From an uncultured bacterium (GTDB lineage: Bacteria; Bacillota_I; Bacilli_A; RFN20; CAG-826): a stretch of DNA of 64,000 nt. Below, piece after piece: positions 5,331 to 63,767 of the stretch. The position numbers and the translations under genes are program-made. Location of the stretch: assembly GCA_949284685.1 (NCBI GenBank), contig CASDWE010000002.1, forward strand, positions 596,106 through 660,105. The letters are read 5' to 3'. The notes beneath the pieces are model-generated. The model did no database searches, was not told where the DNA came from, and saw nothing but the letters and a program-made list of their open reading frames with translations. Each line of letters starts with the position of its first letter. Position 1 is the stretch's first letter.

Positions 5331-5348
5331 AAATTATTGACCAGCTAT

Positions 5349-5424: not shown

Positions 5425-5464
5425 AATTATAAAAATACCGGTGTTCCGGTTTTTTTATACAAAC

Positions 5465-5535
5465 GCACCTGTAGTTCAATGGTAGAACGTTAGCTTCCCA
5501 AGCTGAATACGCGAGTTCGATTCTCGTCAGGTGCT
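5465..5535 (+). tRNA. tRNA-Gly. The anticodon was read as CCC, but UCC is not excluded
   Basis: The acceptor stem gcacctg/caggtgc pairs perfectly. D-arm gttcaatggtagaac resembles Gly tRNAs. The anticodon loop is ttCCCaa and the T-loop is ttcgatt. Confidence 0.6.
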
Positions 5536-15987: not shown

Positions 15988-16063
15988 ACGCCAATAGCTC
16001 AATTGGATAGAGCATTAGACTTCGAATCTAACGGTTGCGGGTTCAAATCCTGTTTGGCGTGCC
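15988..16063 (+). tRNA. tRNA-Arg, anticodon UCG
   Basis: The acceptor stem acgccaa/ttggcgt pairs perfectly. D-arm agctcaattggatagagc, anticodon loop ctTCGaa and T-loop ttcaaat are present, with an encoded CCA. Confidence 0.7.
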
Positions 16064-26949: not shown

Positions 26950-27023
26950 TGGAGCAGGTGACGAGAATCGAACTCGCATAACTACCTTGGCAAGGTAGTG
27001 TTCTACCACTGAACTACACCTGC
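26950..27023 (-). tRNA. tRNA-Gly, anticodon GCC
   Basis: The reverse complement reads gcaggtgtagttcagtggtagaacactaccttGCCaaggtag...ttcgattctcgtcacctgctcca. The acceptor stem gcaggtg/cacctgc pairs perfectly. Confidence 0.75.
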
Positions 27024-28774: not shown

Positions 28775-28849
28775 GGCCCCATGGTCAAGAGGTTAAGACG
28801 AGACCCTCTCAAGGTCTAATCCCGAGTTCGATTCTCGGTGGGGTCGCCA
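28775..28849 (+). tRNA. tRNA-Glu, anticodon CUC as read by eye
   Basis: The acceptor stem ggcccca/tggggtc has one G-U pair. The Glu-type D-arm tggtcaagaggttaagac is present. The anticodon arm is agacc-ctCTCaa-ggtct and the T-arm is ccgag-ttcgatt-ctcgg, with an encoded CCA. Confidence 0.65.
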
Positions 28850-37040: not shown

Positions 37041-37131
37041 GGAGCAATACCCAAGTTGGTGAAGGGGCGTCCCTGCTAAGGACGTAGGTCGGGTAACTGG
37101 CGCGAGAGTTCGAGTCTCTCTTGCTCCGCCA
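37041..37131 (+). tRNA. tRNA-Ser, anticodon GCU
   Basis: The acceptor stem ggagcaa/ttgctcc pairs perfectly. The anticodon arm is cgtcc-ctGCTaa-ggacg. A long variable arm and a T-arm are present. It is 91 nt with an encoded CCA. Confidence 0.75.
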
Positions 37132-46848: not shown

Positions 46849-46924
46849 GCCTACTTAGCTCAGTCGGTAGAGCTATCGGCTGTTAACCGATCGGTCGTGG
46901 GTTCGAGTCCCTCAGTAGGCGCCA
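46849..46924 (+). tRNA. tRNA-Asn, anticodon GUU
   Basis: The acceptor stem gcctact/agtaggc pairs perfectly. The anticodon arm is atcgg-ctGTTaa-ccgat and the T-loop is ttcgagt, with an encoded CCA. Confidence 0.75.
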
Positions 46925-46929
46925 ATTTT

Positions 46930-47006
46930 GGCCCGTTGGAGAAGTGGCTTAACTCATATGCCTTTCACGCATACACTCATGGGTTCGAATCCCGTACGGG
47001 TCACCA
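46930..47006 (+). tRNA. tRNA-Glu, anticodon UUC
   Basis: The acceptor stem ggcccgt/acgggtc has one G-U pair. The anticodon arm is tatgc-ctTTCac-gcata and the T-loop is ttcgaat, with an encoded CCA. Confidence 0.75.
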
Positions 47007-47019
47007 TTAGAAAGATACT

Positions 47020-47050
47020 CGCTAGAATTGTAATGATTCTAGCGTTTTTT
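47020..47050 (+). terminator. Rho-independent terminator after the tRNA-Asn/tRNA-Glu pair
   Basis: cgctagaat-tgtaatg-attctagcg has a 9-bp perfect stem and is followed by TTTTTT. Confidence 0.55.
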
Positions 47051-47274
47051 CATTATTCATAGGCATTTTTATTACTTTTTATAAGTTTTAAATATCTATG
47101 AAGTAGAATTTTTGACTTTAATACATATCAAAAATGCAAAAATGTGATACAATAAAAGCATTATTTAATGATAAGTTTTTATTTGAATTAACTATTGACG
47201 TTATCTTTAATATGTAATAAATGCCTGATTTCAAATAATAATTATTATTGAAGGAAAGATTGATTGACTAATTT

Positions 47275-48237
47275 ATGACTCAAGACGAAAAATTGATATA
47301 TTTAAATGAAATTGTTAAAAATAATTTTACAAGTGAATATAAGGGCCCTTTAATTTTGTATAAATATAGACCATTTGATGAGTATACTTTTGAAATGCTA
47401 GATAATGATTATATTTTCTTGTGTCCAGCCGAAAAAGAAGATGATGAAACTGAGTGCTTAACTACAACGAATCTTAATGAAATGTTAGATCCTAAGACTG
47501 GTAATTTATCAAAAAAATACTTAAATAAAATCGTTAGTTTGATAAAACCTAGTTCAACCGATAAGAATTATGAAATTGCTAAAGATAAAGTTTTTGAAAT
47601 TGCTGATAAAGAAGGTACTAATCCAATAATTTTTAATAAAGATTTTGCTATAGAACTTAAAAAAATGGCACCAGAAGGTACAGATGTTGGTCCAATAATA
47701 AAGGCAATTGAAAACATACCAGAAATGCTTAATAAGCCGGAAATGAGCAAAACTCTTGAACCAGCCTTCAAATTAGCAATTGATGCAAGAAAGAAAATTG
47801 GTATATGTTCATTAGCTGAAACAAATAATATAGATTATATGTGGAAGAATTACGCTCAAGAATCTTCTGGCTATTGTATTGAATATGACTTAAATGATTA
47901 TGAACTAGTAAAGAATATTTTACCTGTTATTTATCAAGATGAAAGAGAAACTAATATAATAGTTCAGTTTACAGGCACTATGCTAGGCTTACTTATATGT
48001 GCTATCAGCAAAGGATTAATACCTGCAGATGCGTCACACTTTATTAGATTATTCTTAACAAAATATAAGAAGTGGGAATATCAAAATGAGTGGAGATATA
48101 TAGGTAGTGCTAATGACAAGCCTAAGGCTCCAAAAGTAAAAACAATTTACTTAGGAAAGAATGTTACTGCTGAGAACGAAATAGAAATGAGAAAATATGC
48201 AGCTTTAAAGAGCATACCAGTTATAAAACTTAATTAG
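47275..48237 (+). CDS. DUF2971-like protein (defence-island associated), tentative
   Basis: The N-terminal region LILYKYRPFDEYTFEMLDNDYIFLCPAEKEDDETE resembles the ...lyKYrs...N-DpfE signature of the DUF2971 family. Confidence 0.45.
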   Translation: MTQDEKLIYLNEIVKNNFTSEYKGPLILYKYRPFDEYTFEMLDNDYIFLCPAEKEDDETECLTTTNLNEMLDPKTGNLSKKYLNKIVSLIKPSSTDKNYEIAKDKVFEIADKEGTNPIIFNKDFAIELKKMAPEGTDVGPIIKAIENIPEMLNKPEMSKTLEPAFKLAIDARKKIGICSLAETNNIDYMWKNYAQESSGYCIEYDLNDYELVKNILPVIYQDERETNIIVQFTGTMLGLLICAISKGLIPADASHFIRLFLTKYKKWEYQNEWRYIGSANDKPKAPKVKTIYLGKNVTAENEIEMRKYAALKSIPVIKLN

Positions 48238-48249
48238 GGAGGAAAGGCT

Positions 48250-49410
48250 ATGAAAATCCATAATATTCATATACATTTTGATTTTGGAAACTGTCTTGTG
48301 ATAAGAAACGATACTCCATTGCTTGATTGTTATCAAATCCAAAAAGATAATGCTAATGCAGCATTAATTGATAAAATTGAAAAAGAAACAAGTGGTAAGT
48401 TTGTATATTTCTTAATTGATATAAATCAAGCAAAGAACGTAAAAAGAAATATTTATATTGGAAAAACAAACAGCTTGATGAATCGAATTATCAGTCATAG
48501 AAAGAATAAAGACTGGTGGAATACGATTATCGTATTTGGTAACAAGTATTTATCTTCAGATGACATAGATGCTATTGAAAAGCTTCTTATTGAGGAATAT
48601 GAAAATTCTGATCTTTATACAATCAAAAATGATGTGGGATCTAATGCTAAATTAAGTGAGCAACATAATGATTATAGAGAATACATTGTTGATATTATGG
48701 ATTTTCTATCTTATGGAGTTACTAAAACTGTCATTACTCCTGAGACTAAAACTAATCAAGTGGTTATTCAAACAGCTGCTCAACCATTATCTAATTCTAG
48801 TAGACAAGAATCATTTAAATTTTCAATGTTAGATATAAAACCTGGTGAGATACTTTCATTTATTAACAATGATAAAGTAACTTGCGAAGTTGTTGATGAT
48901 AAGAATGTTAAATATAAAGGGAAGTTATATTCTTTAAGTTCTTTGGCAAAAGAATTATTGAATACTAATGTTCCTAAAAGAGGAACTGATTATTTTTTAT
49001 ATAAAGGTAAGACTTTAAGAGTTTTAAGAGATGAAAAGAATGGAATACAAGTTTCTGATGTTGAAAAAACTAATAATTGGATTATTTCTTGTAATAAAGA
49101 GTTCTATGATTTAGATAATGCATTAAACGAAATGAAAATTATTGATTTTAAACAAAATGCTAATGTTGAAGCTGGTAGTAAAGTATATATTTATTCATCA
49201 GGTGAAGATAAAAAATTAGTTTATATAACTGAAGCTGTTGTAGTTAATAAACCAGAACAGACTATAAATGACGATAAATATATAAAGAATAAGAGTGGTT
49301 ATGCTGATTCTAATAGATACATGGAACTTAAGCTAGTAAAAAAACTCGAATCTGATAAATTATCATTATCTGATTTAAAGAAAAATGGACTTAGAGGTAA
49401 CTTGCAATGA
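48250..49410 (+). CDS. GIY-YIG nuclease-family protein with a C-terminal extension (DUF4357-like), tentative
   Basis: FVYFLIDIN...NIYIGKTNSLMNRIISHRKN fits the GIY...YIG...R...H spacing. There is a GGGAGG RBS. Confidence 0.5.
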   Translation: MKIHNIHIHFDFGNCLVIRNDTPLLDCYQIQKDNANAALIDKIEKETSGKFVYFLIDINQAKNVKRNIYIGKTNSLMNRIISHRKNKDWWNTIIVFGNKYLSSDDIDAIEKLLIEEYENSDLYTIKNDVGSNAKLSEQHNDYREYIVDIMDFLSYGVTKTVITPETKTNQVVIQTAAQPLSNSSRQESFKFSMLDIKPGEILSFINNDKVTCEVVDDKNVKYKGKLYSLSSLAKELLNTNVPKRGTDYFLYKGKTLRVLRDEKNGIQVSDVEKTNNWIISCNKEFYDLDNALNEMKIIDFKQNANVEAGSKVYIYSSGEDKKLVYITEAVVVNKPEQTINDDKYIKNKSGYADSNRYMELKLVKKLESDKLSLSDLKKNGLRGNLQ

Positions 49411-49481
49411 CCTTGTAGAGTCCCTGTTGAATTACAAGCATATATAGATTTTATTATTAAGTAGAAAGGTGGTGAGACGAT

Positions 49482-51149
49482 ATGTCTTTATTTAAAGAAA
49501 AACCGATATTATTTGAAACAATGTACTTCAAAGGTGGAGATTATGCAGGTGCTTTCTTTTTAAAGAATGTCGTTGACAATCTTTCTTATATTGAAACAAC
49601 TTTATCTTCGTTTGATTACTCAATTAATTCTATTGAAGATTTGTTTGATTTTTTGTGGTTGTCAGACTTTATAGAGATGGCAAATGAATTAGATATATTT
49701 AAAATCGATGAGGATATTAAAACAAGAATTCGTAATCTTGCTGATTCTATATATACTAATCCAAAAGAGTTTATAAAGTTTATTAATAATGATCCTGAAT
49801 TGGTTTTTACAAAACAAAATATTAATAAACCAATGTATTGGCATCTTTACTTACCGAGAATGTTAAATCTATGCTTTAACAAATATTCAACATCATTGAG
49901 ACAAAATGTTTTTGACTTCATAGAAGAAAATCTATATTTGAATGTATTATCATCATTTGATGAGTACCAAAAGTATTATCTAAAACATAAAGAATCATTT
50001 AAAAAGTTATTTAATTCTTTGAAAGAAACCAGACCATTTGATGACCAGATTTATAAAAACTTTTTATTAAAAAAGAATGATATTATAGATCTCGAATTCT
50101 TAAAAGAACAAGCCACATTTATATGTGAAAGAGCATATGATGAAATAATAAAAATGGGGTTAGATTCAGAAAATAAAGAAATTATGCAAGCAGTTAATTT
50201 TTTTGATGAATATTATGAACTTGCTCGTTTTTATAAACTTAAATGTGCAAATAAATATAGTGCCTATAAACCAAAAATAGAAAAAGTGTTAAATGATTAC
50301 ATTGTTAAGCATGGTCAACATATGGATTTTGGTCCTATAGATTTAAAACCAGCGCTAGATATTTTTGAAAAATCAGATGATGTATATAGATTTTTTCAAC
50401 TAACACATAGCATGAAAGATGATAAATACTATAACAATTTAAATAATGTATTTGAAACTACTCCGCCTGATGGTTTATCAGAATTATTTCCACCGAGAGG
50501 TAAAGTTGGTAGTGAGAATTATCCTATCTATAGACAGGATCATATTGATTTATATCTTTCGATTAATTCGAGTATTTTAAATATGATAATAGTTCATCCA
50601 AAGTTATCTGTTGATTTTTCGAATTATATCGGTGCAATCTGCTCTCATGTTCAAACTAACTATTTTGATGATCAAATCAATATTTTCAAAGAAATCGGTG
50701 GAAGTTATGAGATGATTAGTAATCTTTATATGCTTAGAACAAAGAAGCAGAGTGACTCTTTATTGTATAAAGCATTATGTAACGGATGCTGTGTAAATTT
50801 ATGTGGAACCATTGAAAAGATACTAAGAAATATAATAATTAAAGAAGAATCAGACAATGTTTACATTGATGAAAGTAAACTCACATTAGGTCAAATTTTT
50901 AAAAGAACGCATAATTTATCATCAATTTCAAATGGTATTAAATACTATTTAAAATACATATTAATGACTGATGAAGAGACTTCACCAATAAAAGAAAAAA
51001 GACCAGGTAGGGATATAAGAAATTGGCAGATGCATAACGCAAATGATAAGTATGATAAAACAAGTTATCAATTATGCGTTGAACTATTCTATTTAACTAT
51101 ATCTCTTGTAGTTGATTTAGTTGTAGTATCGTTAAAATACGACGAGTAG
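49482..51149 (+). CDS. Hypothetical protein with a C-terminal HEPN-like Rx4H motif
   Basis: The 555-aa product has a C-terminal ...RPGRDIRNWQMHNANDKYD... (R-x4-H) motif, similar to the motif in the 58195 gene. Confidence 0.4.
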   Translation: MSLFKEKPILFETMYFKGGDYAGAFFLKNVVDNLSYIETTLSSFDYSINSIEDLFDFLWLSDFIEMANELDIFKIDEDIKTRIRNLADSIYTNPKEFIKFINNDPELVFTKQNINKPMYWHLYLPRMLNLCFNKYSTSLRQNVFDFIEENLYLNVLSSFDEYQKYYLKHKESFKKLFNSLKETRPFDDQIYKNFLLKKNDIIDLEFLKEQATFICERAYDEIIKMGLDSENKEIMQAVNFFDEYYELARFYKLKCANKYSAYKPKIEKVLNDYIVKHGQHMDFGPIDLKPALDIFEKSDDVYRFFQLTHSMKDDKYYNNLNNVFETTPPDGLSELFPPRGKVGSENYPIYRQDHIDLYLSINSSILNMIIVHPKLSVDFSNYIGAICSHVQTNYFDDQINIFKEIGGSYEMISNLYMLRTKKQSDSLLYKALCNGCCVNLCGTIEKILRNIIIKEESDNVYIDESKLTLGQIFKRTHNLSSISNGIKYYLKYILMTDEETSPIKEKRPGRDIRNWQMHNANDKYDKTSYQLCVELFYLTISLVVDLVVVSLKYDE

Positions 51150-51184
51150 TCTTGCATTTGTTTTTTATATTAATGAGGTAGAAT

Positions 51185-51901
51185 ATGAAATCATTGAATG
51201 AAATAAAGTTATCTATAATAGATGAATTATCTAAGAACAAAGCGTATGATTTACCAAATATATGTTCTGCACTAGGGTTGGAAGATGGTACTGAAAACGA
51301 AGCCTATAATAGTAAAAGAATGTATGTGAGTAAACGAATTAATCATCTTTCTAAAGTTGAAATAAATAAATTACTATATGCAATGAAAGAAAATTTTGAT
51401 ATTGACCTATTACCAGAAGAAAACTGTAACTTTGATAATCTAAAAAAAGTCTCTGAAGAAATAAATAGTGACTATATAAATGTACAAATAGAATTAATGA
51501 AAAAATTTCAAAAAGAAAATCCAACAGAGGCTATTGGTAAAGCGAAGGAACTTTTAGAAACTATTTGTAAAACCATTTTAAAAAGATTAAATATAGAATT
51601 CGATGAATCATGTGAAATCCAAGCCTTAGCAAAAGCAACTTATAAAGCCTTGAAATTATCTCCAGATGAAGTAAAGGATGGCCCTTTATCTCAAACAATA
51701 AAACAAATATTAGGTGGATTGAATAGTATTTCAAGTGGTTTGGCTAGTTTGAGAAACTCTTATGGAAGTGGACATGGCAAGGACGAAAGTTATAAGGGGC
51801 TTCCAGAAAGATATTCAAAGTTAGCAATTGGAAGTGTATCTACACTAGTGGTGTTTCTATGGGAAACAATGCTATATCAAATTGATAAAAATCAAGAGTA
51901 A
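51185..51901 (+). CDS. Abi_C-like abortive-infection protein (HEPN superfamily), tentative
   Basis: The C-terminal ...SSGLASLRNSYGSGHGKD... fits the Abi_C pattern R-N-x5-H-G. There is a GAGG RBS. Confidence 0.5.
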   Translation: MKSLNEIKLSIIDELSKNKAYDLPNICSALGLEDGTENEAYNSKRMYVSKRINHLSKVEINKLLYAMKENFDIDLLPEENCNFDNLKKVSEEINSDYINVQIELMKKFQKENPTEAIGKAKELLETICKTILKRLNIEFDESCEIQALAKATYKALKLSPDEVKDGPLSQTIKQILGGLNSISSGLASLRNSYGSGHGKDESYKGLPERYSKLAIGSVSTLVVFLWETMLYQIDKNQE

Positions 51902-52132
51902 ATAATTGTAGTGATTTTATTCTTAAACTTGCATTTAGTAGAAACTAATGGAATAAGTATGTTAAAACCTGTCGTTTGGGTGAAAAAAATAACATTAGCA
52001 AATTTAAGGTCAAATAACTGTAGAGTTATTGTAGGTTCAGTAAATTGATAAAATAACTCTTTTGTTATATAATTATACCGATAATCTAAAGTACCAGAAA
52101 GTTGAGGAAGGGCTCAAAGGAGGTACTTGTGT

Positions 52133-52363
52133 ATGGATTATCAAAAAGCCATATTAGATAAAGAAGCAACAAGTATTAAACTTAGGTCCCTTAGAATCAA
52201 AGCTAATCTAACACATGATAGACTAGCTGCATTACTTCAACTAAACACACCTCGTGTGATTTATGATTGGGAATGTGCAAAGAAGATGCCTAATGTTGAA
52301 AACTTGTATAATCTGGCTCTAATATTTAATATGAAAATGGAGGATTTACTTGTGACCAAGTAG
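52133..52363 (+). CDS. XRE-family helix-turn-helix transcriptional regulator
   Basis: The HTH_3 core LRSLRIKANLTHDRLAALLQLNTPRVIYDWECAKKMPNVENLYNLALIF is present. An AAGGAGG RBS lies 9 nt upstream of the ATG at 52133. The track's 52127 start is a TTG. Confidence 0.7.
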   Translation: MDYQKAILDKEATSIKLRSLRIKANLTHDRLAALLQLNTPRVIYDWECAKKMPNVENLYNLALIFNMKMEDLLVTK

Positions 52364-52672
52364 ATCCTTCTTTTTTATTTTTGAACTATAGTACATTTTT
52401 TATTCCTGGATTTATTGTTAAAATAATAACAGTATCTATGAATATGTCCGTTGATATTGAAATAAATTTCAATAATGTGATATAATTATATAAAGATACA
52501 TATGCAGGTTCTGAAACAGTGGAGTAAGAACTTTACCTATATGAAATGTTGGAACAAATCCTATGGTTGGGATATACCATATGAGGAGTAAACCAATAGT
52601 TAAAAGCTAATTTTCAAGAGTGGTATTGCGTGTCTAAACAAAATAACATAATAAGAGGAAGAATGTTATTGA

Positions 52673-52708
52673 AGTGGCGATAGGCTAATACCTACCGTCA
52701 CTTTTTTG
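52673..52708 (+). terminator. Intrinsic terminator (attenuator-like) at the end of a ~370-nt leader, 7 nt upstream of the operon RBS
   Basis: agtggcgatagg-ctaata-cctaccgtcact forms a 12-bp stem with one G-U pair and one mismatch, followed by TTTTTTG. The AAGGAGG RBS and the ATG at 52731 follow. Confidence 0.5.
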
Positions 52709-52730
52709 TATATAAGGAGGTGTCAATAAC

Positions 52731-53660
52731 ATGAAAAAGAAAAGCAAAGTCATCGGTAAAGACTATGATAAATTAGAAAAAGATAATAGATTCGATCAGA
52801 TTGATTATTATGGTCTTATTGCTAAAGATGGCAGAATTAAAATTGACACAAAGAGATATAAAAAATTCTTTACTATTCCTGATACTAAAATAGAAAGAAG
52901 ACAATCTGTTTATTACCTTCCAACAAAGCAACATAGATCCGATTATAAATGTAATTGGTTCAGAGATTTGTTAGCAGGTTATAAACAATTGTGGTTTAGA
53001 GAATATAAAAGTTTTATTGATAGCATTAAGACACCAAAGCAAGTAGAAGATAGTGCGAGATTAGATTATTTAGCTGATGGTGTTCTTGAGTACGATGAAG
53101 CTAATGCAAAAGCATTTATTGCAGGTATGAAAAGAAGTGCTGACTATAAAGTGATTATTAAATCTTTATATGCTCAATTCTTCCATCAAATGATGTCTAG
53201 CATTGATGCTTTATGTTTAAAGATGTTAACTGCCTGTGGTTATAAAGAAGAAGATTATACTAAGAAACAATTTGATATTTATATTCAAGGTTTGCAAGGT
53301 AATAATGCATTATCATTCAGACAATACGATAATTATCAATTATATGATAGAGCATTTACTGTTTGGAACTTCCTAAAGCATAACTCTCTTAGATCATATA
53401 AGATCTTGAAGCAATGGTATCCTAAAATGGTATGGGATCCAGAAGAGAAATATCAAAATGGTGAATCTGCACTTACTGTTGTTAAATTAGATGAGAAATT
53501 CATCTTAGATTGTATTGATAACTTACATTTATTCTTTGATGAATTATGTGCGAGAGCTTTTGGTGAAAATGCTGATGATGCACAATGGGATTATGATGAT
53601 TACTTCTTAGACGTCGTACAAGATGAAATAGATGTTATTGTTAATCCACTAGGTATATAG
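52731..53660 (+). CDS. Hypothetical protein, first gene of the helicase operon
   Basis: The 309-aa product has a strong AAGGAGG RBS and no recognisable catalytic motif. Confidence 0.45.
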   Translation: MKKKSKVIGKDYDKLEKDNRFDQIDYYGLIAKDGRIKIDTKRYKKFFTIPDTKIERRQSVYYLPTKQHRSDYKCNWFRDLLAGYKQLWFREYKSFIDSIKTPKQVEDSARLDYLADGVLEYDEANAKAFIAGMKRSADYKVIIKSLYAQFFHQMMSSIDALCLKMLTACGYKEEDYTKKQFDIYIQGLQGNNALSFRQYDNYQLYDRAFTVWNFLKHNSLRSYKILKQWYPKMVWDPEEKYQNGESALTVVKLDEKFILDCIDNLHLFFDELCARAFGENADDAQWDYDDYFLDVVQDEIDVIVNPLGI

Positions 53661-53672
53661 GAGGGCGGAAGA

Positions 53673-56600
53673 ATGGCATATTTATTTCTATCTTTTACTG
53701 ACAGATTGAATAATGGTTCTAATTTTAAAAGTGAATTATATAATCAATCTCTAACTGAACAATTTGAATATATCCAAAAAAGAATCCCTCTTGAAAGACA
53801 AGTTAGTAGCTTTAGATCATTTATAGAAGAATGCTTTACTACAGGAATGATGAAGAAATATTACATTTCTTGCCCTAACTTCTTAAGAGAAAAAGAATCT
53901 TCAAAAAGTGGTAAAGTGCAATATCTTGATAATGTAGTTGTACGTCCAGAATTAACTTTATCAATGAGAAAAGTGTTACCTGATAATCAAAACATAATTC
54001 TTATCGGTAAGATTGTAGAAGGTGGCAAACAAAAACATTTAGAGGTAAAAGGGATACAATTAATAGATTCCTCTATGTCTTCACCTAATGATATTGTTAT
54101 TTCTGCAGCTGCATGTAATTCATTTTCTGAAGAAAAAAGAGCAAGCATGTATGGTGGTACATTTGCTGTTAACATATGGTCGGTTCCAAATGTTCCTTAT
54201 GAAGATACTGTATTTACACCTAATTTTGTATATGAACTAATTCAATCATGCTGGACTGTATCTAAGCCAGAGCAAATTAGACAATCTTATGATATTTGGA
54301 ATAAATACATTGAATTTAGAAAGTACTATCTTCAAGAACAATCAAAGCGTAATTTTAAATTAGATAGAGCTATGTTTGTTGAAGCATATGCCGTCAATAG
54401 AAAAGACTACAAAAAGAATGCTTCAATTTATGATGAATATCTACTTGATGGACGAGATGAGTTTAAATGGGGAGATATGATTGTTTTATCTGAAAAGATA
54501 GAAGATGCTGAAGAATTCCCACTTATTAGATTAGATATTGAAAGAAATAGAAAAGCTTTTAATGAAGCTAAAGTTACAAAACGTGGAAAATTAGTTAATG
54601 AAGAAGAACGTAAGATTCGTTCATTATCTAGTGATAATGTATTTATTACTGCTATTGATCCTGAAAGTAAATCACAGCATAACGATAGACAGGTTACTTT
54701 TGGTGAATTATTAAATGCTGGATATGCATTAGGTGATAGATTTAAAATTGTTTCTTATGATATCGAACCTACTGAGCATTTAGAAGAATTAGATCAAGTA
54801 TATACAAAAGATATTGATAACTCATATAAAAATATAGATGCTAAGTTTGAAAAGATTATTAAAGAAGAAGTAAAACAAGCAGTTACTTTATATGAAAAAG
54901 AATTAAATAAACAAGCTAAAGAAAGAATTGATTCTTATAAAAATGAACTAGATAGTTCTTTAGAACAAGATGTTTTAGAAAATAAAGATAAAAATATTAT
55001 TAGTTTAATTGATAAAAAGAAAAAAGAAATTGAAGCTAATGTTAAAAAGAATAATAAACAAGATAAAAAAGAAAAAGATAATGAATATGCATTAAGAATA
55101 AAAGCGTTAATTGAAGATGAAATATCTAAAATTGATGTCAAGTCATATTATGTTGAAAGAAATTCTAAATTATTACAAGATAATGCGAATAAGATTGAAG
55201 TTGAACTAAAGAGATTATTGGCACAGTATGAAGTAAAAAAGAATTCTGAAATTACTAACAAATATAAAGATGATGTTAGAAATGAAAAGATTAAATCAAA
55301 AGAAGAACTTGATGCTAAGTTAAAGTCTGATAAAGAAAAAGCAATTGAAGAAGAAACAATTATTAGATTCTCGTTATATTTTAGATTAGGTGATTCTAAT
55401 AATTTTATTTCTGATAAGCAAAAAAAGGTTGTAGATTCTTGTGAATATATTGTTTATGATAATCGTGCTGAAAAGGCAAAGATATCAAGACAAGAAGCAG
55501 CTTTAGATAATTTCTATTCTGGATATGTTAAGAATCCATATCTTTCAACATATCTTTTTAATCCTGAAGAATTAGATACTGTTAAAGCTGAACCTAGCGA
55601 TTGGATATGGTATTTAGATTCTCTTAATGAAAAGCAAAAAGAGGCTGTAAGAAAAGCAGTTTCAAGTAACGGTATATTCTTACTTCAAGGTCCTCCAGGA
55701 ACTGGTAAAACACAAGTAATTGCTGAAACAGTAGCTCAGTTAATTAAAAAAGGTAAGAAGGTATTAATTTCATCAGAAACTCATAAGGCAATTGATAATG
55801 TATTTGAAAGATTACCTAAGATTGCTGAAATTGTACCTATTAGATTAATTCCTTCTAATAATGATAAAAAGAAAGAAAACGAATATGATCCAAAATTCCT
55901 AGTAGATAATTTCTATTTAAATATTTCTTCTAATATGAAGAAAGCTGTTAATAGATATAAGAATTTTGAAAAGAACAAAATAGAATTTGCTGAAAACTTT
56001 GATAAATTAAAGTTGGCAAAAGCCAAAATAGAAAAATCTCAAAAGGTTTTAGATAAGGCTAACGAAGAAATCAAAAAGTTTGAAGACAATGCTAAAGACA
56101 TTAATTCTAAGATATCAGTATTAAATGATAAAAAGGACTTGGTCAGAATTGATATTGATATCTTAAGAAGAACTAAACGTCATATTGAAAATGATAATTT
56201 GAGACCTGATGAAGATGTAAAGGTTGACTTGATTGTTGATGTAAGAAAGAAACTAGAACCTTTATTTGAAAAAGATGTTTATATCGATGATGATTTAGGC
56301 CAATTATTAAAAAATATTAATTTAATTAAAAATGATGAAATAGAACGTGAGTTAGCAGTCATTAATCCTGAATCCAATAAAACTATTCTTGAAGTTAAGA
56401 AAAATGATTTAAAGGCTGAATTAAATAAATATGTTGATGAATTGGGAGACATTATTAATCCTAATAATGAAGAAAAAGTTGAAGAAATTAAAAATGAATT
56501 AAGAAAGGTTTTAAAAGAACTTAAGGCTGAATCAGTTGACATATCTTTAAGCGATTTAAAACTTAATAAGATTTTTAATTATTCATATTTAGTTGCTAAT

Positions 56601-58202
56601 ATTTCTCTAATTCCAGAAGTTATTAGAACTGTAAAAGATAGAATTATTGAGATTAAATCTTCAACGATAGAAGTTCTTAATAAAGAATTACGTACTATTG
56701 AAGATAAACAAGCAGAACTAGATAAAGAAATAGATTCATTAAAGCAACAAATAAAAGTAATTAATGAAAATATTATTGATATTCAAGAAAGAAATGATGT
56801 TAAAGATATTCAAGAAGCTAAATACAAGCTTGAGAATGATTTAATAAAATTCTTTAAAGATTTTGAAATTGCTGAACCATATAGAGATGTAGATGAAGGT
56901 CTAAAGATTATTAAACGTAAATGGTCTGAGCTTGAAGATGATTTCCAAGCGAAAGAACAAGAAAATAGAGAAAAAATACCTATGTATGAAAAGATCGCAA
57001 ATTACATCACTAGTGAAGATGTAATTGAAGAAGATAGAAAGGTATTTACTAAAGACTTGTTTGAAAATGCTAATGTATTTGGTATTACATGTACATCTAA
57101 CGATAGATTCAGTGGAAGAAATGTTGATGCATTATCTGAATATAATATCGATGAGATTGATATTAAGTCTGTAGGTATTGATGTAGTTATTATTGACGAA
57201 GTTTCTAAATCAAGTTTTATAGATTTATTGATACCTATTCTTTATGGTAAAACAGTTATTCTAGTTGGAGACCATAGACAATTACCTCCAATGTATGAAT
57301 TCTCAAAATTAAGAGATGATGATTTTGAAGGATTAGATGAGACAATTATTAATAAAGAAATTAATAAAGAGTTCACTAAATTGTATGAAGAGTGTTTCTT
57401 CAAAACTCTATTTGAAAGAATACCAGATAGTTATAAAACTATGTTAGTTCAACAATATAGATGTCATGAACATATTATGAATGTATTTAACCATTTCTAT
57501 AAAGGCGAATTAAAACTAGGTTTTGCAGGTCAAAACAATAATAAACATCATAATGTTAAATTACTATCAAATGGTAGAAATATTATCGAACCAGATAAAC
57601 ATATTTATTTTGTTGATTGTAAGCAAAATGAAACGCATGAAGCTGATTCAACATCTATGTACAATACTGGTGAAGCTAGAGTTGTAGTTGAATTAATCAG
57701 AAAATTAAATACATACTTTAAATCGCATCCTGAACTTGAAAAGTTAAGCATTGGTGTTATTTGTACTTACGGAGACCAAGCTAGAAAAGTAAAAGAATTA
57801 CTTAAGAGTGAAAAGGTTAAAACTGATGCATTTAAAACTGACGTTGAAAAGATGATAGTCTCTACAGTCGATGATTTCCAAGGCGATGAAAGAGATATTA
57901 TTATCTTGACTACAGTTAGAAATCCTGAGAATCCAAAAAGAAGTAATCCTGGATTCATCTTGGCTTATCAAAGAATTAATGTTGCCTTATCTAGAGCTAG
58001 AAGAATGCTTGTTATGGTAGGTAATAGAAAATACCTAGAAGAAAAAGGTGTGATAGATCTACCAGATGTCTATGGTCGTGTTGGTAAAGAGCAACGAAAC
58101 TTTAGAGTTTATGAAGAAATCCTATCTACTATTGAACGATATGGTAAGGTCATTGAGGATATTGATGTATTAGATGATAAGGAGGCGAGAATAAATGGAT
58201 AA
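53673..58202 (+). CDS. Giant Upf1/DNA2-like superfamily-1B helicase (1509 aa) with an unassigned ~640-aa N-terminus and a ~500-aa Lys/Glu coiled-coil insertion
   Basis: Motif I is LLQGPPGTGKTQ and motif II is VVIIDEVSKSSF. VGDHRQLPPM is motif III and QYRCHEHI is motif IV. VSTVDDFQGDERDIIILTTVR and YQRINVALSRARRMLVMVGN are motifs V and VI, the AAA_11/AAA_12 architecture. There is a GGAGGG RBS. Confidence 0.8.
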   Translation: MAYLFLSFTDRLNNGSNFKSELYNQSLTEQFEYIQKRIPLERQVSSFRSFIEECFTTGMMKKYYISCPNFLREKESSKSGKVQYLDNVVVRPELTLSMRKVLPDNQNIILIGKIVEGGKQKHLEVKGIQLIDSSMSSPNDIVISAAACNSFSEEKRASMYGGTFAVNIWSVPNVPYEDTVFTPNFVYELIQSCWTVSKPEQIRQSYDIWNKYIEFRKYYLQEQSKRNFKLDRAMFVEAYAVNRKDYKKNASIYDEYLLDGRDEFKWGDMIVLSEKIEDAEEFPLIRLDIERNRKAFNEAKVTKRGKLVNEEERKIRSLSSDNVFITAIDPESKSQHNDRQVTFGELLNAGYALGDRFKIVSYDIEPTEHLEELDQVYTKDIDNSYKNIDAKFEKIIKEEVKQAVTLYEKELNKQAKERIDSYKNELDSSLEQDVLENKDKNIISLIDKKKKEIEANVKKNNKQDKKEKDNEYALRIKALIEDEISKIDVKSYYVERNSKLLQDNANKIEVELKRLLAQYEVKKNSEITNKYKDDVRNEKIKSKEELDAKLKSDKEKAIEEETIIRFSLYFRLGDSNNFISDKQKKVVDSCEYIVYDNRAEKAKISRQEAALDNFYSGYVKNPYLSTYLFNPEELDTVKAEPSDWIWYLDSLNEKQKEAVRKAVSSNGIFLLQGPPGTGKTQVIAETVAQLIKKGKKVLISSETHKAIDNVFERLPKIAEIVPIRLIPSNNDKKKENEYDPKFLVDNFYLNISSNMKKAVNRYKNFEKNKIEFAENFDKLKLAKAKIEKSQKVLDKANEEIKKFEDNAKDINSKISVLNDKKDLVRIDIDILRRTKRHIENDNLRPDEDVKVDLIVDVRKKLEPLFEKDVYIDDDLGQLLKNINLIKNDEIERELAVINPESNKTILEVKKNDLKAELNKYVDELGDIINPNNEEKVEEIKNELRKVLKELKAESVDISLSDLKLNKIFNYSYLVANISLIPEVIRTVKDRIIEIKSSTIEVLNKELRTIEDKQAELDKEIDSLKQQIKVINENIIDIQERNDVKDIQEAKYKLENDLIKFFKDFEIAEPYRDVDEGLKIIKRKWSELEDDFQAKEQENREKIPMYEKIANYITSEDVIEEDRKVFTKDLFENANVFGITCTSNDRFSGRNVDALSEYNIDEIDIKSVGIDVVIIDEVSKSSFIDLLIPILYGKTVILVGDHRQLPPMYEFSKLRDDDFEGLDETIINKEINKEFTKLYEECFFKTLFERIPDSYKTMLVQQYRCHEHIMNVFNHFYKGELKLGFAGQNNNKHHNVKLLSNGRNIIEPDKHIYFVDCKQNETHEADSTSMYNTGEARVVVELIRKLNTYFKSHPELEKLSIGVICTYGDQARKVKELLKSEKVKTDAFKTDVEKMIVSTVDDFQGDERDIIILTTVRNPENPKRSNPGFILAYQRINVALSRARRMLVMVGNRKYLEEKGVIDLPDVYGRVGKEQRNFRVYEEILSTIERYGKVIEDIDVLDDKEARING

Positions 58203-60327
58203 GTTTAAATTAGAAACTTCTATGCAATTTCCATTCTTTAAATTGAATGAACTTGCTATATATTCAGAAGTTAAAAAGCCTAGTGGTGTAGCCTATATTT
58301 TACTAGTACTTATCAGTGAGTCAAAAAATAAAAATGATAGATTATCTAAAGTGCTAGAGAATTTTGGTATACCTAAATCTTTACATTATATTTTTGCTGA
58401 TAATGTTCAATACCTTATGAATCAGGGAATACTAGAAGAATTTAACTTTTACAAAACTGAATTTGATAGTTATCTTATAGGATCATTTCAATTTACTTCA
58501 AAAGGTAAAAAAATATTTGCAGAAGAATCTATTCCTACAGGTGTTAATAAAGAATTAAAGGTTGCAGTCTTTTATGATATTGCAATGAATGCATTATCTT
58601 TAAAAATGGATGTTGATTTAGATCCTAAACCATTAATGGACTGTGCAATTACACCTGAATTTATGAATTCATTTAAATGTGAAAAGAATGTAGAAAATTT
58701 CTTAAACCTTCAAAAAGGTAAAGGAATAGGCATAAAGAAAGAAGAAATAATTACTAGCGTAGAGTTATTAAATCAAGAAAATTGGATTGGAAAATATGAT
58801 TGTGACATGAATATCAAAGGCGATGATATAGAAATCAAATTTGATGAAGCGTTACTACAAAAATTCTTTGATGCTAATTACAATCAAGAAATGGTTAATT
58901 TAGCCATATCATATAAAAACAAGTTCAAGTTTAAATCTTCTTTTAAAGATAATCTAAAACTAAGTAGTTATGGTTTTGATAGAATTGCTGGAATTATTAT
59001 TCCAAAAGAAATTGATGATGTGTTAAAGCAAAAAAATCAATTATTACTTACAAAAGGTAATTATAAAACTTCAAATGGTTATATGGTTACTAGTGCTGAT
59101 TCACTTGCTGGATTTGATGATACAATTGAATTCATACAAGTTGATATGCATGATTCGATTTATGCATATATTCCAGGCAACTTTAATTTTAATAATAGTA
59201 TATTTGGAACTATTACAATTCCTTTGGCTGTTAAAATTAAACTAACTGATGAGGAATTGAAAAATGTTATTAGACCATATGTACTTTCTTTATCTTCATA
59301 TAGCGAAGATAACTTTAGAGAGCTTGTTAAGGTAACAAATATCACTGATGACTTAAAGTTAGCAAAAGAGATTATTGAAGGTTATGTTAATAAAAATGCA
59401 GAAAGCAATATTGTCTTGTTAAATGAAATGAAGCCATATGCAATATCTAATGGTGGTATTTCAAATATCTATAGAGAGCTATTAGAAAAGAACTATAACA
59501 ATTATATGGATAATTTAACTGAAGACAATCTTGAAACAGCATTAAAGATAACTGCTTCAGTTCCTAAATTCCTAAATATTCCAAATAAGGACGTTTTATC
59601 TAAAATCTTTAAGAATGTAAAGGCTAGAAGTGAATTGAAGATTTATGAAACTTTAGTAAATAAAGGATTTGATAAATCACTAGTTGTTCTATATGTTAAC
59701 CCAGTAAATGAAATACTTAAGTTGAGAGATTCTGAAGAGAAGAGTCTTATTGATTTAATTAATTATGATGATGCTTTGGAAGAAATGAAACGCATAACAA
59801 ATATAAGTGATTATAAGAGTTATTTGTATGATGAAGAAAAGATAAATCATAATGAATTTAAAACAAATTATAACAAAGCATTCAATCTTCAAAAGAATAT
59901 TTTAGTGTTTAAAAATGGCAATGAAGCATTATTTGCAAATTATGATGGTTTTATGAAGCTGTTCTCTACAATTAATGATGATATTAATATGGTTGAGTCA
60001 GCTCTTAAAAATCCTAATAATCTGAAACTAGATTTAATTGAAAAGAAAATATCTAGTGGTGAATATCAATTTGTATTTGTTAATCTATCTGCAAAATTAG
60101 AAACAATTCTTAAAAACAAGTATAAATTAGAAGGTAAATTATCTGACATGCTAAATGATGCAAGATCTAATGGTATAATCGATAAAAAGATTGTCAGTGA
60201 TTTGCATGATTTTAGAGATAACAGAAATGCAAATGTTCATCCTGAAGATAGAACGTCTAACTATGATGCAAATGATCTCAGAAGATGGGCAAAAGAAATC
60301 TTTGATTTGGAGGTGAAAAAGAAATGA
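58195..60327 (+). CDS. Hypothetical 710-aa protein with a C-terminal HEPN-like (DUF4145-type) Rx4H motif
   Basis: The C-terminal ...LHDFRDNRNANVHPEDRTSNYD... (R-x4-H) is present. There is an AAGGAGG RBS. It overlaps the helicase gene by 8 nt. Confidence 0.45.
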   Translation: MDKFKLETSMQFPFFKLNELAIYSEVKKPSGVAYILLVLISESKNKNDRLSKVLENFGIPKSLHYIFADNVQYLMNQGILEEFNFYKTEFDSYLIGSFQFTSKGKKIFAEESIPTGVNKELKVAVFYDIAMNALSLKMDVDLDPKPLMDCAITPEFMNSFKCEKNVENFLNLQKGKGIGIKKEEIITSVELLNQENWIGKYDCDMNIKGDDIEIKFDEALLQKFFDANYNQEMVNLAISYKNKFKFKSSFKDNLKLSSYGFDRIAGIIIPKEIDDVLKQKNQLLLTKGNYKTSNGYMVTSADSLAGFDDTIEFIQVDMHDSIYAYIPGNFNFNNSIFGTITIPLAVKIKLTDEELKNVIRPYVLSLSSYSEDNFRELVKVTNITDDLKLAKEIIEGYVNKNAESNIVLLNEMKPYAISNGGISNIYRELLEKNYNNYMDNLTEDNLETALKITASVPKFLNIPNKDVLSKIFKNVKARSELKIYETLVNKGFDKSLVVLYVNPVNEILKLRDSEEKSLIDLINYDDALEEMKRITNISDYKSYLYDEEKINHNEFKTNYNKAFNLQKNILVFKNGNEALFANYDGFMKLFSTINDDINMVESALKNPNNLKLDLIEKKISSGEYQFVFVNLSAKLETILKNKYKLEGKLSDMLNDARSNGIIDKKIVSDLHDFRDNRNANVHPEDRTSNYDANDLRRWAKEIFDLEVKKK

Positions 60328-61412
60328 GCCAGCAAGTAACTGTTGATTACCAAGGTGTATCTATTCAAGTGCAAGCTAAATGTGATACAGCTGTTCATTC
60401 GCTATGTCAAATAGATAAAGTGCTTGATAGAATACATAAAACAGCAGATAAGCTAGAAACATCAAAAGTAAAAGAATATGAAGCTTATTTGCAAAAATCC
60501 AAGGAAACAATCAAAGAAAAGATTGAAGCGTTTAAGAAGACTCTAGAAAAATATAAAGAAGCTAGGGCTTATTCGGTTAATAATCATCAACCAGATTATC
60601 AACAATTCATTAATTTTACTAATAAAGTTCAAGCTGAATCACAAGAATTAATTAGAACAGTAAATGAGTTAACTGGTTCTAAACTTGCAGTAATTGATCA
60701 GATGATTGATGAAGGATTATTAAATGCTGGACAAGAAACTACTCAAGCTATGCTTGATAAATTACATGGTGTTATTTCGATTTCAGATGATGTTTTATTA
60801 AAGATTAATAGTATAGAAGATGTTTCATTAAGAGAATTAGCTTATAGAGAAATTCTTAAAAATGATAAACTTAGTTTTGATGAAGCAATTACTAAAGCAC
60901 AAGAAGAATATGATGTTCTCTTAGGTAAACAAACAAAGAAAGTTATTCAAGAATATAAAGAAGAACTTACTGCTAAGGGTATTACTGTTGAAGAATTAGA
61001 TAAAGCTAAATCTATTGATGAAGCTAATGCTATTGCTAATGAAGCAATTACTGATGAAACAGTAAGAAAAGAAACTTTAAAAGTTATTATTAAAGCAATC
61101 AAAGATAGAGGATTCATTGTTGATACAAAGAAGAATCTTAAAATCGATAAAGAAAGAAATATTGTTAAGCTTGTTGCATTAAAGGCATCTGGACAAATGG
61201 CTGAATTTGAAATTCAACTTAATGGTAAGTTTATGTACCACTTTGATGAATATGAAGGTCATGCATGTAAGAAAGATATAGAACCATTCTTAGAAGATTT
61301 AAAGAATATCTACGATATCAATATTCTTCATGAAGAAGTAACGTGGGAAAATCCAGATAAGATTCAAACTCAAAAATATCAATACATAAACAAAAATAAG
61401 GGTACTAATTAG
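60324..61412 (+). CDS. Hypothetical coiled-coil protein (362 aa), possible partner of the downstream ClpB-like ATPase
   Basis: There is a GGAGG RBS and a 4-nt overlap with the upstream gene. It has no catalytic motif. Confidence 0.4.
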   Translation: MSQQVTVDYQGVSIQVQAKCDTAVHSLCQIDKVLDRIHKTADKLETSKVKEYEAYLQKSKETIKEKIEAFKKTLEKYKEARAYSVNNHQPDYQQFINFTNKVQAESQELIRTVNELTGSKLAVIDQMIDEGLLNAGQETTQAMLDKLHGVISISDDVLLKINSIEDVSLRELAYREILKNDKLSFDEAITKAQEEYDVLLGKQTKKVIQEYKEELTAKGITVEELDKAKSIDEANAIANEAITDETVRKETLKVIIKAIKDRGFIVDTKKNLKIDKERNIVKLVALKASGQMAEFEIQLNGKFMYHFDEYEGHACKKDIEPFLEDLKNIYDINILHEEVTWENPDKIQTQKYQYINKNKGTN

Positions 61413-61423
61413 GAGGTAAACAT

Positions 61424-63238
61424 ATGTCTTTACAAAATAGTTTTAATAAAATCAGAAGAAATGCTGGAATTAAAAAATGTGTCATGATTGATGGCAATGT
61501 TGGTGACGTTTATTTAAATGAAAAAAATAATATCGTCACATTAAGAGAATATCTTGAAGCAATGTTCAAAGATATGGATTATCAAGACATTGTTTACTGG
61601 GATAGAGTTGAAGGTGCAACTGGTGCAATTGATAAGCTTACTTTAACAGATGAAGTTGAAGTAGAAGGTGATGCATATGATTTAGGTGATGAAGAAGAAA
61701 CACCTAAAGCACAACAAGGCTTATTTAAATCACCAGCTGAAATCTTAAATGTTGTTTATAAGAATGTAATTGATAAAAAGAAAAAAGTAGCTTTTATTAT
61801 CAATTGGTCTGAATATTTATTCAGTGTTAATGGGTTAAGCGATGATGAAAGACAAAATATTACTTTATTAGGTAAAGCTCTAAAGGATAGAAAAGTAGAT
61901 TATTTAAACACTGACTGCAACGAAAGTGTTGTTGTCATTATTTTAAATAAAGCGTCTGGATTACCATTATCTTTCTATCAAGGAAATCCTGAAGTTGAAA
62001 TTGTAACATTACAAAAACCAGATAGAGAAGAAAGAAAACAAATGATTCAAAAGATAGAAGATTCATTTGAAGTTAGATTAAAATCTGGTACTAGCTCATT
62101 GCTTGATAATGAAAATATCGATTGTATTGATATGCTTGAAGATTTCACTAATCGTGAGATTATTCAATTATCAAGAATGTCTAGAAAAGAAGATAAGATG
62201 ACTTTTGATAAGTTATTCTATTTATTCAAATATGGTGAAAAAGAAAATCCATGGGAAAAATTAGAACAATCTAGAGTTAAGAATATCAAAAAAGAATTAT
62301 CTGACAGAGTTATAGGTCAAGAAGAAGCAATTGATAAAATTGAAAAGACTGTTGTTAAAGCATATATGGGTTTAACAGGCCTTCATAAAACTTCATCTAG
62401 ATCAATGCCAAAAGGTGTATTCTTCTTTGTTGGTCCTACTGGTGTAGGTAAAACTGAGCTTTCAAAGGCTTTAGCTAAATTCTTATTTGGTGATGAACAA
62501 GCTTGTATTAGATTTGATATGTCTGAATATGCTCAAGAGAATAGTGATCAAAAATTAATTGGTGCAGCTCCTGGATATGTTGGATATGAAGAAGGTGGCC
62601 AATTAACTAATGCAATTAAAGAACATCCATTCTCAGTTGTATTATTTGATGAAATTGAAAAGGCTGCAAAACCTAATCCACGTATTCTAGATATTTTCTT
62701 ACAAATTCTAGAAGATGGTCGTTTAACAGATTCTAAAGGTGAAACTGTATACTTCAGCGACACAATTATAGTATTCACATCTAACTTGGGTGCTAACCAA
62801 GTTCAAGCATCATCTGATAAAGAAGGTGTAGCAAAAGAATTCATTAAGATTGTAAAAGATTACTTTGATAATGAATTAAAGAGACCAGAATTATTAGGAC
62901 GTATCGGATACAATAATATCGTTCCATTTAATTTCATTCAAGATAGAGATTTCCAAGTTAAGATTTGTAAGAACAAACTAAAACCAGTTATCAGGGGAAT
63001 AGAAGAAAAATATAAACTTGAATTGGAATTTGAGAAAGAATTGGAAGCTATCGAATATATCTTAAAAGCTGTAGATTCATCTAAAGGTGGTCGTGATATT
63101 TTAAATGCTATCAATGATAGATTATTAGATCCACTAGCAATGTTCTTATTTGAAAATAAAGATGAATTACGTTCTTTAAAAGGAAGCAGAATTATTACAA
63201 AGGTAACAAAAGATGGATTCAGCTTTGACTTCGATTAA
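61424..63238 (+). CDS. ClpA/ClpB-D2-like AAA+ ATPase with an unassigned ~300-aa N-terminal domain
   Basis: RVIGQEEAI...FFFVGPTGVGKTELSKALA...LIGAAPGYVGYEEGGQLT...VVLFDEIEKAAKPNPRILDIFLQILEDGRLTDSKG...VFTSN is the canonical ClpB second nucleotide-binding domain, with sensor and D2-small domain. There is an AGGAGG RBS. Confidence 0.75.
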   Translation: MSLQNSFNKIRRNAGIKKCVMIDGNVGDVYLNEKNNIVTLREYLEAMFKDMDYQDIVYWDRVEGATGAIDKLTLTDEVEVEGDAYDLGDEEETPKAQQGLFKSPAEILNVVYKNVIDKKKKVAFIINWSEYLFSVNGLSDDERQNITLLGKALKDRKVDYLNTDCNESVVVIILNKASGLPLSFYQGNPEVEIVTLQKPDREERKQMIQKIEDSFEVRLKSGTSSLLDNENIDCIDMLEDFTNREIIQLSRMSRKEDKMTFDKLFYLFKYGEKENPWEKLEQSRVKNIKKELSDRVIGQEEAIDKIEKTVVKAYMGLTGLHKTSSRSMPKGVFFFVGPTGVGKTELSKALAKFLFGDEQACIRFDMSEYAQENSDQKLIGAAPGYVGYEEGGQLTNAIKEHPFSVVLFDEIEKAAKPNPRILDIFLQILEDGRLTDSKGETVYFSDTIIVFTSNLGANQVQASSDKEGVAKEFIKIVKDYFDNELKRPELLGRIGYNNIVPFNFIQDRDFQVKICKNKLKPVIRGIEEKYKLELEFEKELEAIEYILKAVDSSKGGRDILNAINDRLLDPLAMFLFENKDELRSLKGSRIITKVTKDGFSFDFD

Positions 63239-63767
63239 GTTTAATGTAGCATATATAAAATTATGTACTAAAACTGAAGGTCCATATAAGAGATGCTGTA
63301 TTTGGTTTCAAGGATGTAACATTAATTGTAGAGGATGTTGTAATAACGATTTACAACCATTAGTTCCAAATCATATAGTTACATTAAAAGAACTTATCGA
63401 TATAGTTAAAGAAGCTAAAGATAAGTTTGATATAGAAGGTATAACTCTTAGTGGTGGTGAACCTTCTTTACAAACTGGTTTAAAATTCTTCAATAATGAA
63501 ATTCATAAATTAGGATTAGGAATTATTATGTTTTCAGGAAAAAATAAACAACTTCTTGACAAAGAACTAGTTGAATCTGTTGATTTATTAATAGATGGTC
63601 CATTTATTGAAGAACAACTTGATGATAAAAGAGTTTTATTAGGTTCTAAAAATAAACGATTATCTTTTATTACTGATAGATATAAAAAAGAAGAAAATTA
63701 TTTCAATAATCCTATAGCTATAGAAGAAGTAACAGCTGAGGATTATATCTTCATAAATGGAGACTGA
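63213..63767 (+). CDS. Small radical-SAM / 4Fe-4S activase-like protein (NrdG/QueE-like)
   Basis: The cluster motif FQGCNINCRGC is CX3CX2C. ITLSGGEP (SAM-binding) is present. The 184-aa size is typical of NrdG-type activases. Confidence 0.7.
   Translation: MDSALTSIKFNVAYIKLCTKTEGPYKRCCIWFQGCNINCRGCCNNDLQPLVPNHIVTLKELIDIVKEAKDKFDIEGITLSGGEPSLQTGLKFFNNEIHKLGLGIIMFSGKNKQLLDKELVESVDLLIDGPFIEEQLDDKRVLLGSKNKRLSFITDRYKKEENYFNNPIAIEEVTAEDYIFINGD

Follow-up and report, generated by a model that had tools for sequence, protein, structure and literature searches.

A conserved structured RNA upstream of an orphan protein gene at the head of defence-type operons in uncultured gut Bacilli

The described system nearest in layout to the locus analysed here is the RCd22/AbiF pair of the Clostridioides difficile phage phi027, in which a sigA promoter is followed by a noncoding RNA (ncRNA), a terminator, a ribosome-binding site (RBS) and the gene of a protein of ~300 aa, with no promoter between them (PMC12373285). 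Experiments on that pair show that one start site gives rise to a short terminated RNA as well as a read-through mRNA, that the presence of the RNA reduces expression, and that RNA and protein bind each other (PMC12373285). We find the same order of parts, here read from sequence alone, in a 64,000-nt stretch of DNA (hereafter the window) from an uncultured bacterium (Bacillota_I; Bacilli_A; RFN20; CAG-826), which corresponds to positions 596,106-660,105 of the forward strand of CASDWE010000002.1 in assembly GCA_949284685.1. In this window, the spacer between a gene for an XRE-type helix-turn-helix (HTH) protein and a gene for an orphan protein of 309 aa (p309) encodes an RNA with a conserved fold. 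Comparative analysis indicates that this RNA is a previously undescribed conserved structured family, of the known kind represented by structured leaders and ncRNA partners of defence genes. It probably decides whether the operons headed by p309 are transcribed. Coordinates below are those of the window, and the parts of the module lie on the + strand, except for one palindrome that has no strand.

The conserved structured core of the RNA spans 140 nt (52495..52634) and comprises six helices, as supported by a covariance model built on it (R1, 158 bits), by RNAalifold and by pair counts. Helix P1 (52495-99/52630-34) pairs GAUAC with GUAUC over 5 bp and closes the domain, within which P2 forms a hairpin (52508-12/52527-31). 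P3 is a long irregular helix (52534-37/52622-25 plus 52540-47/52611-19) that places UACC/GGUA and AUGAAA/UUUCA around an invariant internal loop, and P4 (52548-52/52593-97), P5 (52554-66/52577-89) and P6 (52598-601/52605-08) meet in a three-way junction. The invariant loop consists of CCUAUAUG (52536-43) facing CAAGAGUGG (52615-23). By-eye readings of this loop as a K-turn, a T-box or a sarcin-ricin motif were rejected, as their sequence rules are unmet and the Rfam T-box model gives no match.

Support for the fold comes from p309 homologues gathered from metagenome assemblies and from 38 genome loci (individual loci of either source carry the prefix L below), mainly in uncultured gut Bacilli/Mollicutes-like metagenome-assembled genomes. 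The RNAalifold consensus of 17 sequences contains 53 pairs, with compensatory changes in 31. Pairs were also counted in a structure-blind MAFFT alignment of 27 distinct sequences, with controls in which the 3' partners were slid by 1-3 columns and with 500 shuffles. In this alignment the proportion of paired cells is 96.6%, compared with 33-46% in the slid controls, and compensatory changes are found in 24 of the 39 pairs. Covariation scores 0.424 in the alignment and 0.07-0.09 after sliding, and not one of the 500 shuffles attains the values observed. The assignment of the RNA to the + strand follows from its frequent G-U pairs. In the window itself every pair of the model is canonical except one; the single-sequence minimum free energy is -50 kcal/mol and that of the comparative structure -39.7 kcal/mol, and the comparative structure was adopted.

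R1 identifies a single copy in the window and 63 relatives at 69-163 bits (23 genome loci and ~40 metagenome or viral sequences), while the next-best match reaches at most 21 bits. The scans of sequence collections use the RNA pattern alone, so their matches are unbiased as to the proteins encoded nearby. These scans returned 120 metagenome stretches and four viral-contig stretches, and about 40 of them are genuine RNAs; the remaining 84 were set aside as chance matches within coding genes, several of them one abundant gene resampled, and do not represent a wider family. We further note that, even where p309 has diverged to 50-57% identity, the nucleotide identity of the spacer is still 70-80%, and that the aligned conserved block extends from just after the -10 box of a promoter in the spacer to the terminator. 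Given these observations, we regard the existence of a structured RNA family as close to certain.

This family has no counterpart in Rfam 15 (4227 families). A covariance search of this kind had been proposed in a preliminary description of the locus made from its sequence; at gathering thresholds the window yields tRNAs only, as do 15 diverse homologous loci, so that no family matches the RNA in either. When the search of 52100-52900 is relaxed to E-values up to 10, it returns only chance-level matches far under the thresholds. Comparison of the spacer with phage and plasmid collections at the DNA level gives nothing relevant, and literature searches found no description of the RNA or of p309.

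The layout of the spacer defines the transcript. The preliminary description correctly located the end of the HTH reading frame at 52363, the hairpin with its U-run and the RBS of the operon, and the stretch behind the HTH gene is indeed noncoding, with no open reading frame (ORF) reaching 40 aa on either strand between 52364 and 52730. Its view of this stretch as a single leader of ~370 nt does not hold. The XRE-type gene (52127..52363, 78 aa, Pfam HTH_3, E = 2.6e-6) has its own intrinsic terminator at 52339..52376, a hairpin overlapping the stop codon with a 14-bp stem (52339-52370) followed by TTTTTT, and an equivalent is present in 16 of 21 representative loci. Further downstream lies a sigma-70-type promoter (52457..52486) of the form TTGAAA-18-TGaTATAAT, with 11 of 12 consensus matches and an extended -10 element. 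Its parts are the -35 box TTGAAA (52457-52462), the TG (52478-52479) and the -10 box TATAAT (52481-52486). All 24 aligned relatives keep the -10 box at a constant distance from P1, and 19 of them have TGn; the predicted RNA start falls 1-2 nt ahead of P1. Given the separate terminator of the XRE gene and this internal promoter, the 367 nt do not form one leader, and the transcript is predicted to start at ~52493. The predicted leader, or short terminated RNA, thus consists of the core, a further hairpin (P7) and the terminator and measures ~215 nt (52493..52707), bounded by promoter and terminator, with ~238 nt up to the ATG of p309.

An inverted-repeat search reveals a perfect palindrome, TATTGAAAT-AA-ATTTCAATA, with 9-nt arms over the -35 box and the promoter spacer (52455..52474). 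About nine of 23 relatives carry clade-specific, differing palindromes at the equivalent position, which makes the palindrome a candidate XRE operator that co-varies with its regulator. The XRE gene itself is found upstream of the RNA in essentially all loci that reach far enough, ending ~275 nt before the 3' end of the core in the RNA-pattern matches with sufficient flank. It is a conserved partner on the upstream side of the module, and its product is a candidate repressor of transcription of the RNA. The palindrome across the -35 box, with its clade-specific counterparts, points to additional repression of this promoter by the XRE protein. The promoter of the XRE gene (52045-52073) and that of the RNA have in common a 15-nt extended -10 block, TGTnATATAATTATA (52063-52077 and 52476-52490), which may reflect shared regulation or duplication. 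In the complete genome of Mycoplasmatota bacterium WC44 (L035 4934-5134), an XRE homologue lies downstream of a distant p309 gene, not upstream.

Behind the core follow P7, the terminator and the RBS. P7 (52642..52670), defined by comparison, pairs AAUAACAU with AUGUUAUU and presents a purine-rich AGAGG loop. It is found with altered stem sequences in 22 of 24 representatives and is absent from L023 and L031; AGG or GGA in its loop, reminiscent of a Shine-Dalgarno (SD) sequence (AGAGG/GAGGG), occurs in 17 of 19 representatives, with no conserved ORF behind it. A pseudoknot between the AGG of this loop and a CCU in the core was considered and is unsupported, since L150 alters the loop yet retains the CCU. 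The intrinsic terminator (52671..52707) has a stem of 52671-84 / 52691-704 with one A.C mismatch, a loop at 52685-90 and a U-run at 52702-07. Its hairpin has a folding energy of -16.2 kcal/mol (z = -3.9), and none of 200 shuffles is as stable. An equivalent hairpin and U-run (-11 to -20 kcal/mol) are found in 23 of 24 representatives, the detection script having missed the one in L017, and terminators are also present in the distant loci L034, L035, L036, L038 and L042. The 5' arm of the terminator is unusually conserved (GGAUGAUAnUGG).

The RBS of the first operon gene, AAGGAGG (52714..52720), follows 6 nt after the U-run, with the ATG at 52731, and all relatives have a strong RBS 6-40 nt past the terminator. 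With just 23 nt from the U-run to the ATG there is no room for a promoter, and p309 and the genes downstream of it therefore need read-through of the terminator. We consider it quite likely that the RNA acts in cis through its terminator.

The proposed partner or reader of the RNA is p309 (52731..53660), the invariant first gene after it, whose start lies 77-104 nt after the 3' end of the core in the RNA-pattern matches with sufficient flank. In the window, read-through would extend to the remaining operon (53673..63767), which encodes an MkoA-like superfamily 1 (SF1) helicase (1509 aa), a 710-aa protein with a DUF4145 C-terminus, a 362-aa protein, a ClpB-like ATPase (604 aa) and an NrdG-like radical SAM (S-adenosylmethionine) protein (184 aa). 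At least two large operons of defence type, unrelated to each other, follow the same XRE-RNA-p309 head. The second type (L009 1374-5327; L103 736-4882, minus strand; also L010, L016, L030, L023, L091 and L156) encodes a 388-aa protein, one to three paralogous proteins of 116-151 aa, an AAA ATPase (533 aa), a 512-727-aa protein, a 247-aa protein, an NrdG-like radical SAM protein (190 aa) and an RNase III-like protein (147 aa). The NrdG-like radical SAM gene lies toward the end of both operon types. A full copy of the module is also found on a viral-classed contig of 53.7 kb (IMG/VR UViG_3300009767_000642; L166 6395-6541), which may be a prophage or other mobile-element carrier, or may be misclassified.

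The p309 family forms 216 clusters at 50% identity among 1.84 billion representatives, and its members are typically ~300-350 aa long. Searches of p309 give no Pfam, NCBIfam or PADLOC match and no PDB match by profile, Foldseek against PDB and BFVD returns nothing, and Pfam scans of distant family members are likewise empty. The Abi_2 domain is found in none of 21 family members, and domain searches detect neither ToxN nor canonical HEPN signatures in p309. The AlphaFold2 model (mean predicted local distance difference test score, pLDDT, 83) shows p309 as a bundle of helices with a basic extension at the N-terminus; the possibility that p309 is a HEPN-domain RNase is only a lead from modelling.

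The association of the RNA with p309 extends to distant homologues of the protein (27-37% identity), which are preceded by a reduced RNA that has P1, P2 and the CCUA(U/A)A...AG(A/C)GUGGU loop just upstream of the gene. This reduced-core motif is present in five of nine distant p309 loci, against one background match in ~640 kb, and the reduced RNA of L042 scores 20.8 bits. The bacterial reduced RNAs retain the terminator, and the arrangement of terminator and then RBS is kept in all bacterial members examined. In the archaeon Ca. Methanogranum (L039 3942-4001), a terminator-less mini core, GCCUAUAA...UAGAGUGGUG, stands in front of a p309 homologue of 32% identity, with 20 nt between the end of the core and the ATG. 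The archaeal mini core suggests, at the level of sequence, both a transfer between domains and a function not bound to bacterial termination.

How the RNA might control read-through is indicated by a second possible pairing. The 3' strand of P1 together with 3 nt upstream of it (52627..52635) has alternative partners, the 5' strand of P1 (52495-99) or the 5' arm of the terminator (52678-52685), the P1 strand GC(C)GUAUC being complementary to GAUAnUGGC in the terminator arm. In 14 of 21 sequences the P1 3' strand is the best upstream partner of this arm. The complementarity is better than in composition-matched shuffles in 14 of 17 lineages (mean z = -1.26), a figure whose pooled significance is inflated by related sequences. 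It is also kept through lineage-specific substitutions, such as GCA/UGC in L016, CAAUAUC/GAUAUUG in L156 and UGUAUGUAU/UUGCAUAC in L031, as well as in L150 and L023. The attenuator or riboswitch layout seen in the preliminary description is thus borne out as far as the structured domain, the terminator, the RBS and, in most lineages, a possible alternative pairing are concerned, but not as a known riboswitch, for which Rfam offers no match. The kind of antiterminator pairing for which it proposed to look is available in most lineages, as short helices, and is weak in the window itself (z = -0.34).

These features would fit a four-segment switch, in which P1 and the terminator form together in the OFF state, while in the ON state the P1 3' strand pairs with the terminator 5' arm instead. 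By default, most transcripts would stop at the terminator to give the ~215-nt RNA, and the potentially harmful helicase/ATPase operon would be kept low. Since P1 is a mere 5 bp closing a domain of 135 nt, its formation should depend on stabilisation of the core, which would be a natural point of control. The core is most likely read by p309, rather than by a metabolite, in feedback and/or in a stable RNA-protein pair, because the RNA tracks p309 through operon swaps, through deep divergence and through transfer to an archaeon. To this the XRE protein probably adds repression at the level of the promoter, through the palindrome described above.

The resulting proposal, that the RNA is a dedicated transcription attenuator of p309-headed operons with its core read by p309, is the one that we favour, with confidence and doubt in roughly equal measure. 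Several observations weigh against it. The antiterminator is short (6-9 bp, -3 to -11 kcal/mol), and the window's own pairing is weak at -6.9 kcal/mol; stronger pairings are found in L016, L150, L156, L023 and L031. This weakness in the window makes the antiterminator step of the switch suggestive only. In addition, P7 sits between the two switching segments and is given no role by the model, and a complex junction with invariant unpaired bases is exactly what a metabolite aptamer would look like.

This last point leads to the possibility, which we rate as unlikely, that the RNA is a riboswitch for a small molecule or ion, with the core as an aptamer, perhaps for a nucleotide-derived product of the radical SAM enzyme or a signal linked to infection, whose ligand would stabilise P1 and so favour termination. 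Several features agree with such a device: a junction of several helices in which unpaired nucleotides are invariant, a short P1 that closes it, a terminator and a plausible antiterminator behind it, the stronger conservation of the RNA relative to the flanking proteins, and an NrdG-like radical SAM gene in both operon types. Riboswitches of known classes usually regulate several gene families that belong to a single pathway. In contrast, the RNA described here is tied to the p309 family only, even when the remaining operon is swapped, and such a single-family association is unlike the usual pattern. The operon genes include no recognisable metabolite transporter or biosynthetic gene, a separate XRE regulator is already there, and no Rfam aptamer matches.

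We are similarly doubtful that the RNA works purely in trans, as an antitoxin, scaffold or guide that acts with p309 and/or the helicase. The terminator would then be simply its 3' end, and a fixed, leaky read-through would set the ratio of RNA to protein as in ToxIN, with no regulated switch. Type III antitoxins are tandem repeats that are processed by the toxin. Neither tandem repeats (TRF) nor direct repeats are found in 52300-52800 or 52487-52712, which sets this RNA apart from such antitoxins, and the missing ToxN, Abi_2 and canonical HEPN signatures of p309 also speak against a trans-acting partnership of this kind. Moreover, a plain terminator has no need of the conserved complementarity between its 5' arm and the P1 3' strand.

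A more far-reaching idea makes the RNA the sensor of an immune system. In one form it would resemble a riboswitch, detect a cue specific to infection (such as a nucleotide-derived signal, a phage protein or RNA of a phage) and switch on the 10-kb helicase/ATPase/radical-SAM defence operon; in the other it would be an obligatory RNA subunit that arms or guides p309 together with the downstream effectors. We consider this improbable at present.

The preliminary description also suggested that translation of a six-codon ORF could be coupled to termination; in such a scheme, ribosomes would stop within the terminator 5' arm and thereby prevent termination. Both the ORF, ATG-TTA-TTG-AAG-TGG-CGA-TAG (52663-52683), and the AAGAGGA before it (52653-52659) are present as described. 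In the clade of the window the SD-like AAGAGGA stands in the P7 loop, the ATG follows 3-4 nt on and the stop codon lies in the terminator 5' arm; L018 and L027 are similar, with a TTG start. The SD-like loop, the start and the stop in the terminator arm occur together in only six of 19 lineage representatives, however, and the arrangement is missing in the other 13. The encoded peptides are not conserved, the ATG is part of the base-paired 3' arm of the covarying P7, and L023 and L031 have no P7 at all, which leaves leader-peptide attenuation very improbable. A 29-aa ORF at 52502 was also considered; it is confined to the window clade and is not conserved. Lastly, we give virtually no credence to an ordinary spacer with no special element, in which the hairpin merely ends the regulator transcript and the operon promoter lies elsewhere, as the XRE gene already has a terminator of its own, 330 nt ahead of the hairpin in the window and with equivalents in 16 of 21 loci, a near-consensus promoter lies in between, the U-run is only 23 nt from the ATG and the spacer is strongly conserved with covariation.

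The surroundings of the module in the window are defence-island-like (46849-63767). This region starts right after two tRNA genes (46849-46921 and 46930-47003) and contains genes for a DUF2971/PDC-S31 protein, a GIY-YIG-like PDC-S57/S14 protein, a 555-aa orphan and an AbiJ-like Abi_C protein (51185-51901), followed by the XRE-RNA-p309 operon. Seven other tRNA genes are found in the window (a cluster of three at 5254-5535, and 15988-16061, 26953-27023, 28775-28846 and 37041-37128) and are unrelated to the RNA family.

The RNA thus represents a new and well-supported structured class, unmatched in Rfam and with covariation in 24 pairs, from Bacilli of the human and animal gut that are for the most part uncultured, and it is linked to an unannotated protein family and to two uncharacterised multi-gene operons of defence type. 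To our knowledge, RNA-controlled or RNA-partnered defence systems beyond CRISPR, retrons and defence-associated reverse transcriptases (DRTs), and type III toxin-antitoxin systems are few. The XRE gene, the RNA and p309 constitute a testable module that could explain how large, potentially toxic immune operons are silenced and then released. The invariant internal loop persists even in the reduced RNAs and in the archaeal one, and gives the search for a binding ligand or protein a definite target. If the reading of the RNA as a sensor or subunit were true, the module would be a new class of RNA-dependent antiviral module, found in gut Bacilli/Mollicutes-like bacteria and a methanogenic archaeon.

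Comparison with known systems places the module among several types of RNA-based control. With terminator-type riboswitches and protein-binding leaders (ribosomal-protein and bgl/sac), the RNA has in common a P1-closed domain at the 5' end, a terminator before the RBS and a candidate mutually exclusive pairing. In bgl/sac leaders, which combine a ribonucleic antiterminator (RAT) with a terminator, the first gene past the leader terminator encodes the RNA-binding regulator. Unlike these leaders and riboswitches, the RNA has P7 between its core and its terminator, and within defence-type loci it accompanies one orphan gene family only. The type III toxin-antitoxin systems (ToxIN, CptIN and TenpIN) likewise have an RNA gene directly upstream of the protein gene, a terminator between the two that sets the RNA:protein ratio and a link to abortive infection and defence islands, whereas the RNA described here is without repeats and p309 is without a ToxN-like signature.

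As for RCd22/AbiF, both it and this module are found in a low-GC Firmicutes defence context. In contrast to AbiF, p309 has no Abi_2 domain and heads a multi-gene operon of 10 kb, and an XRE gene is part of the module. Neither in sequence nor in structure does the RNA match the abiF motif (RF03085), which consists of two hairpin motifs of ~35 nt, whereas the RNA forms one multi-helix domain of 140 nt. By analogy with these systems, the proposed partnership between p309 and its RNA would most likely be one like that of RCd22 with AbiF and of the type III toxin-antitoxin pairs.
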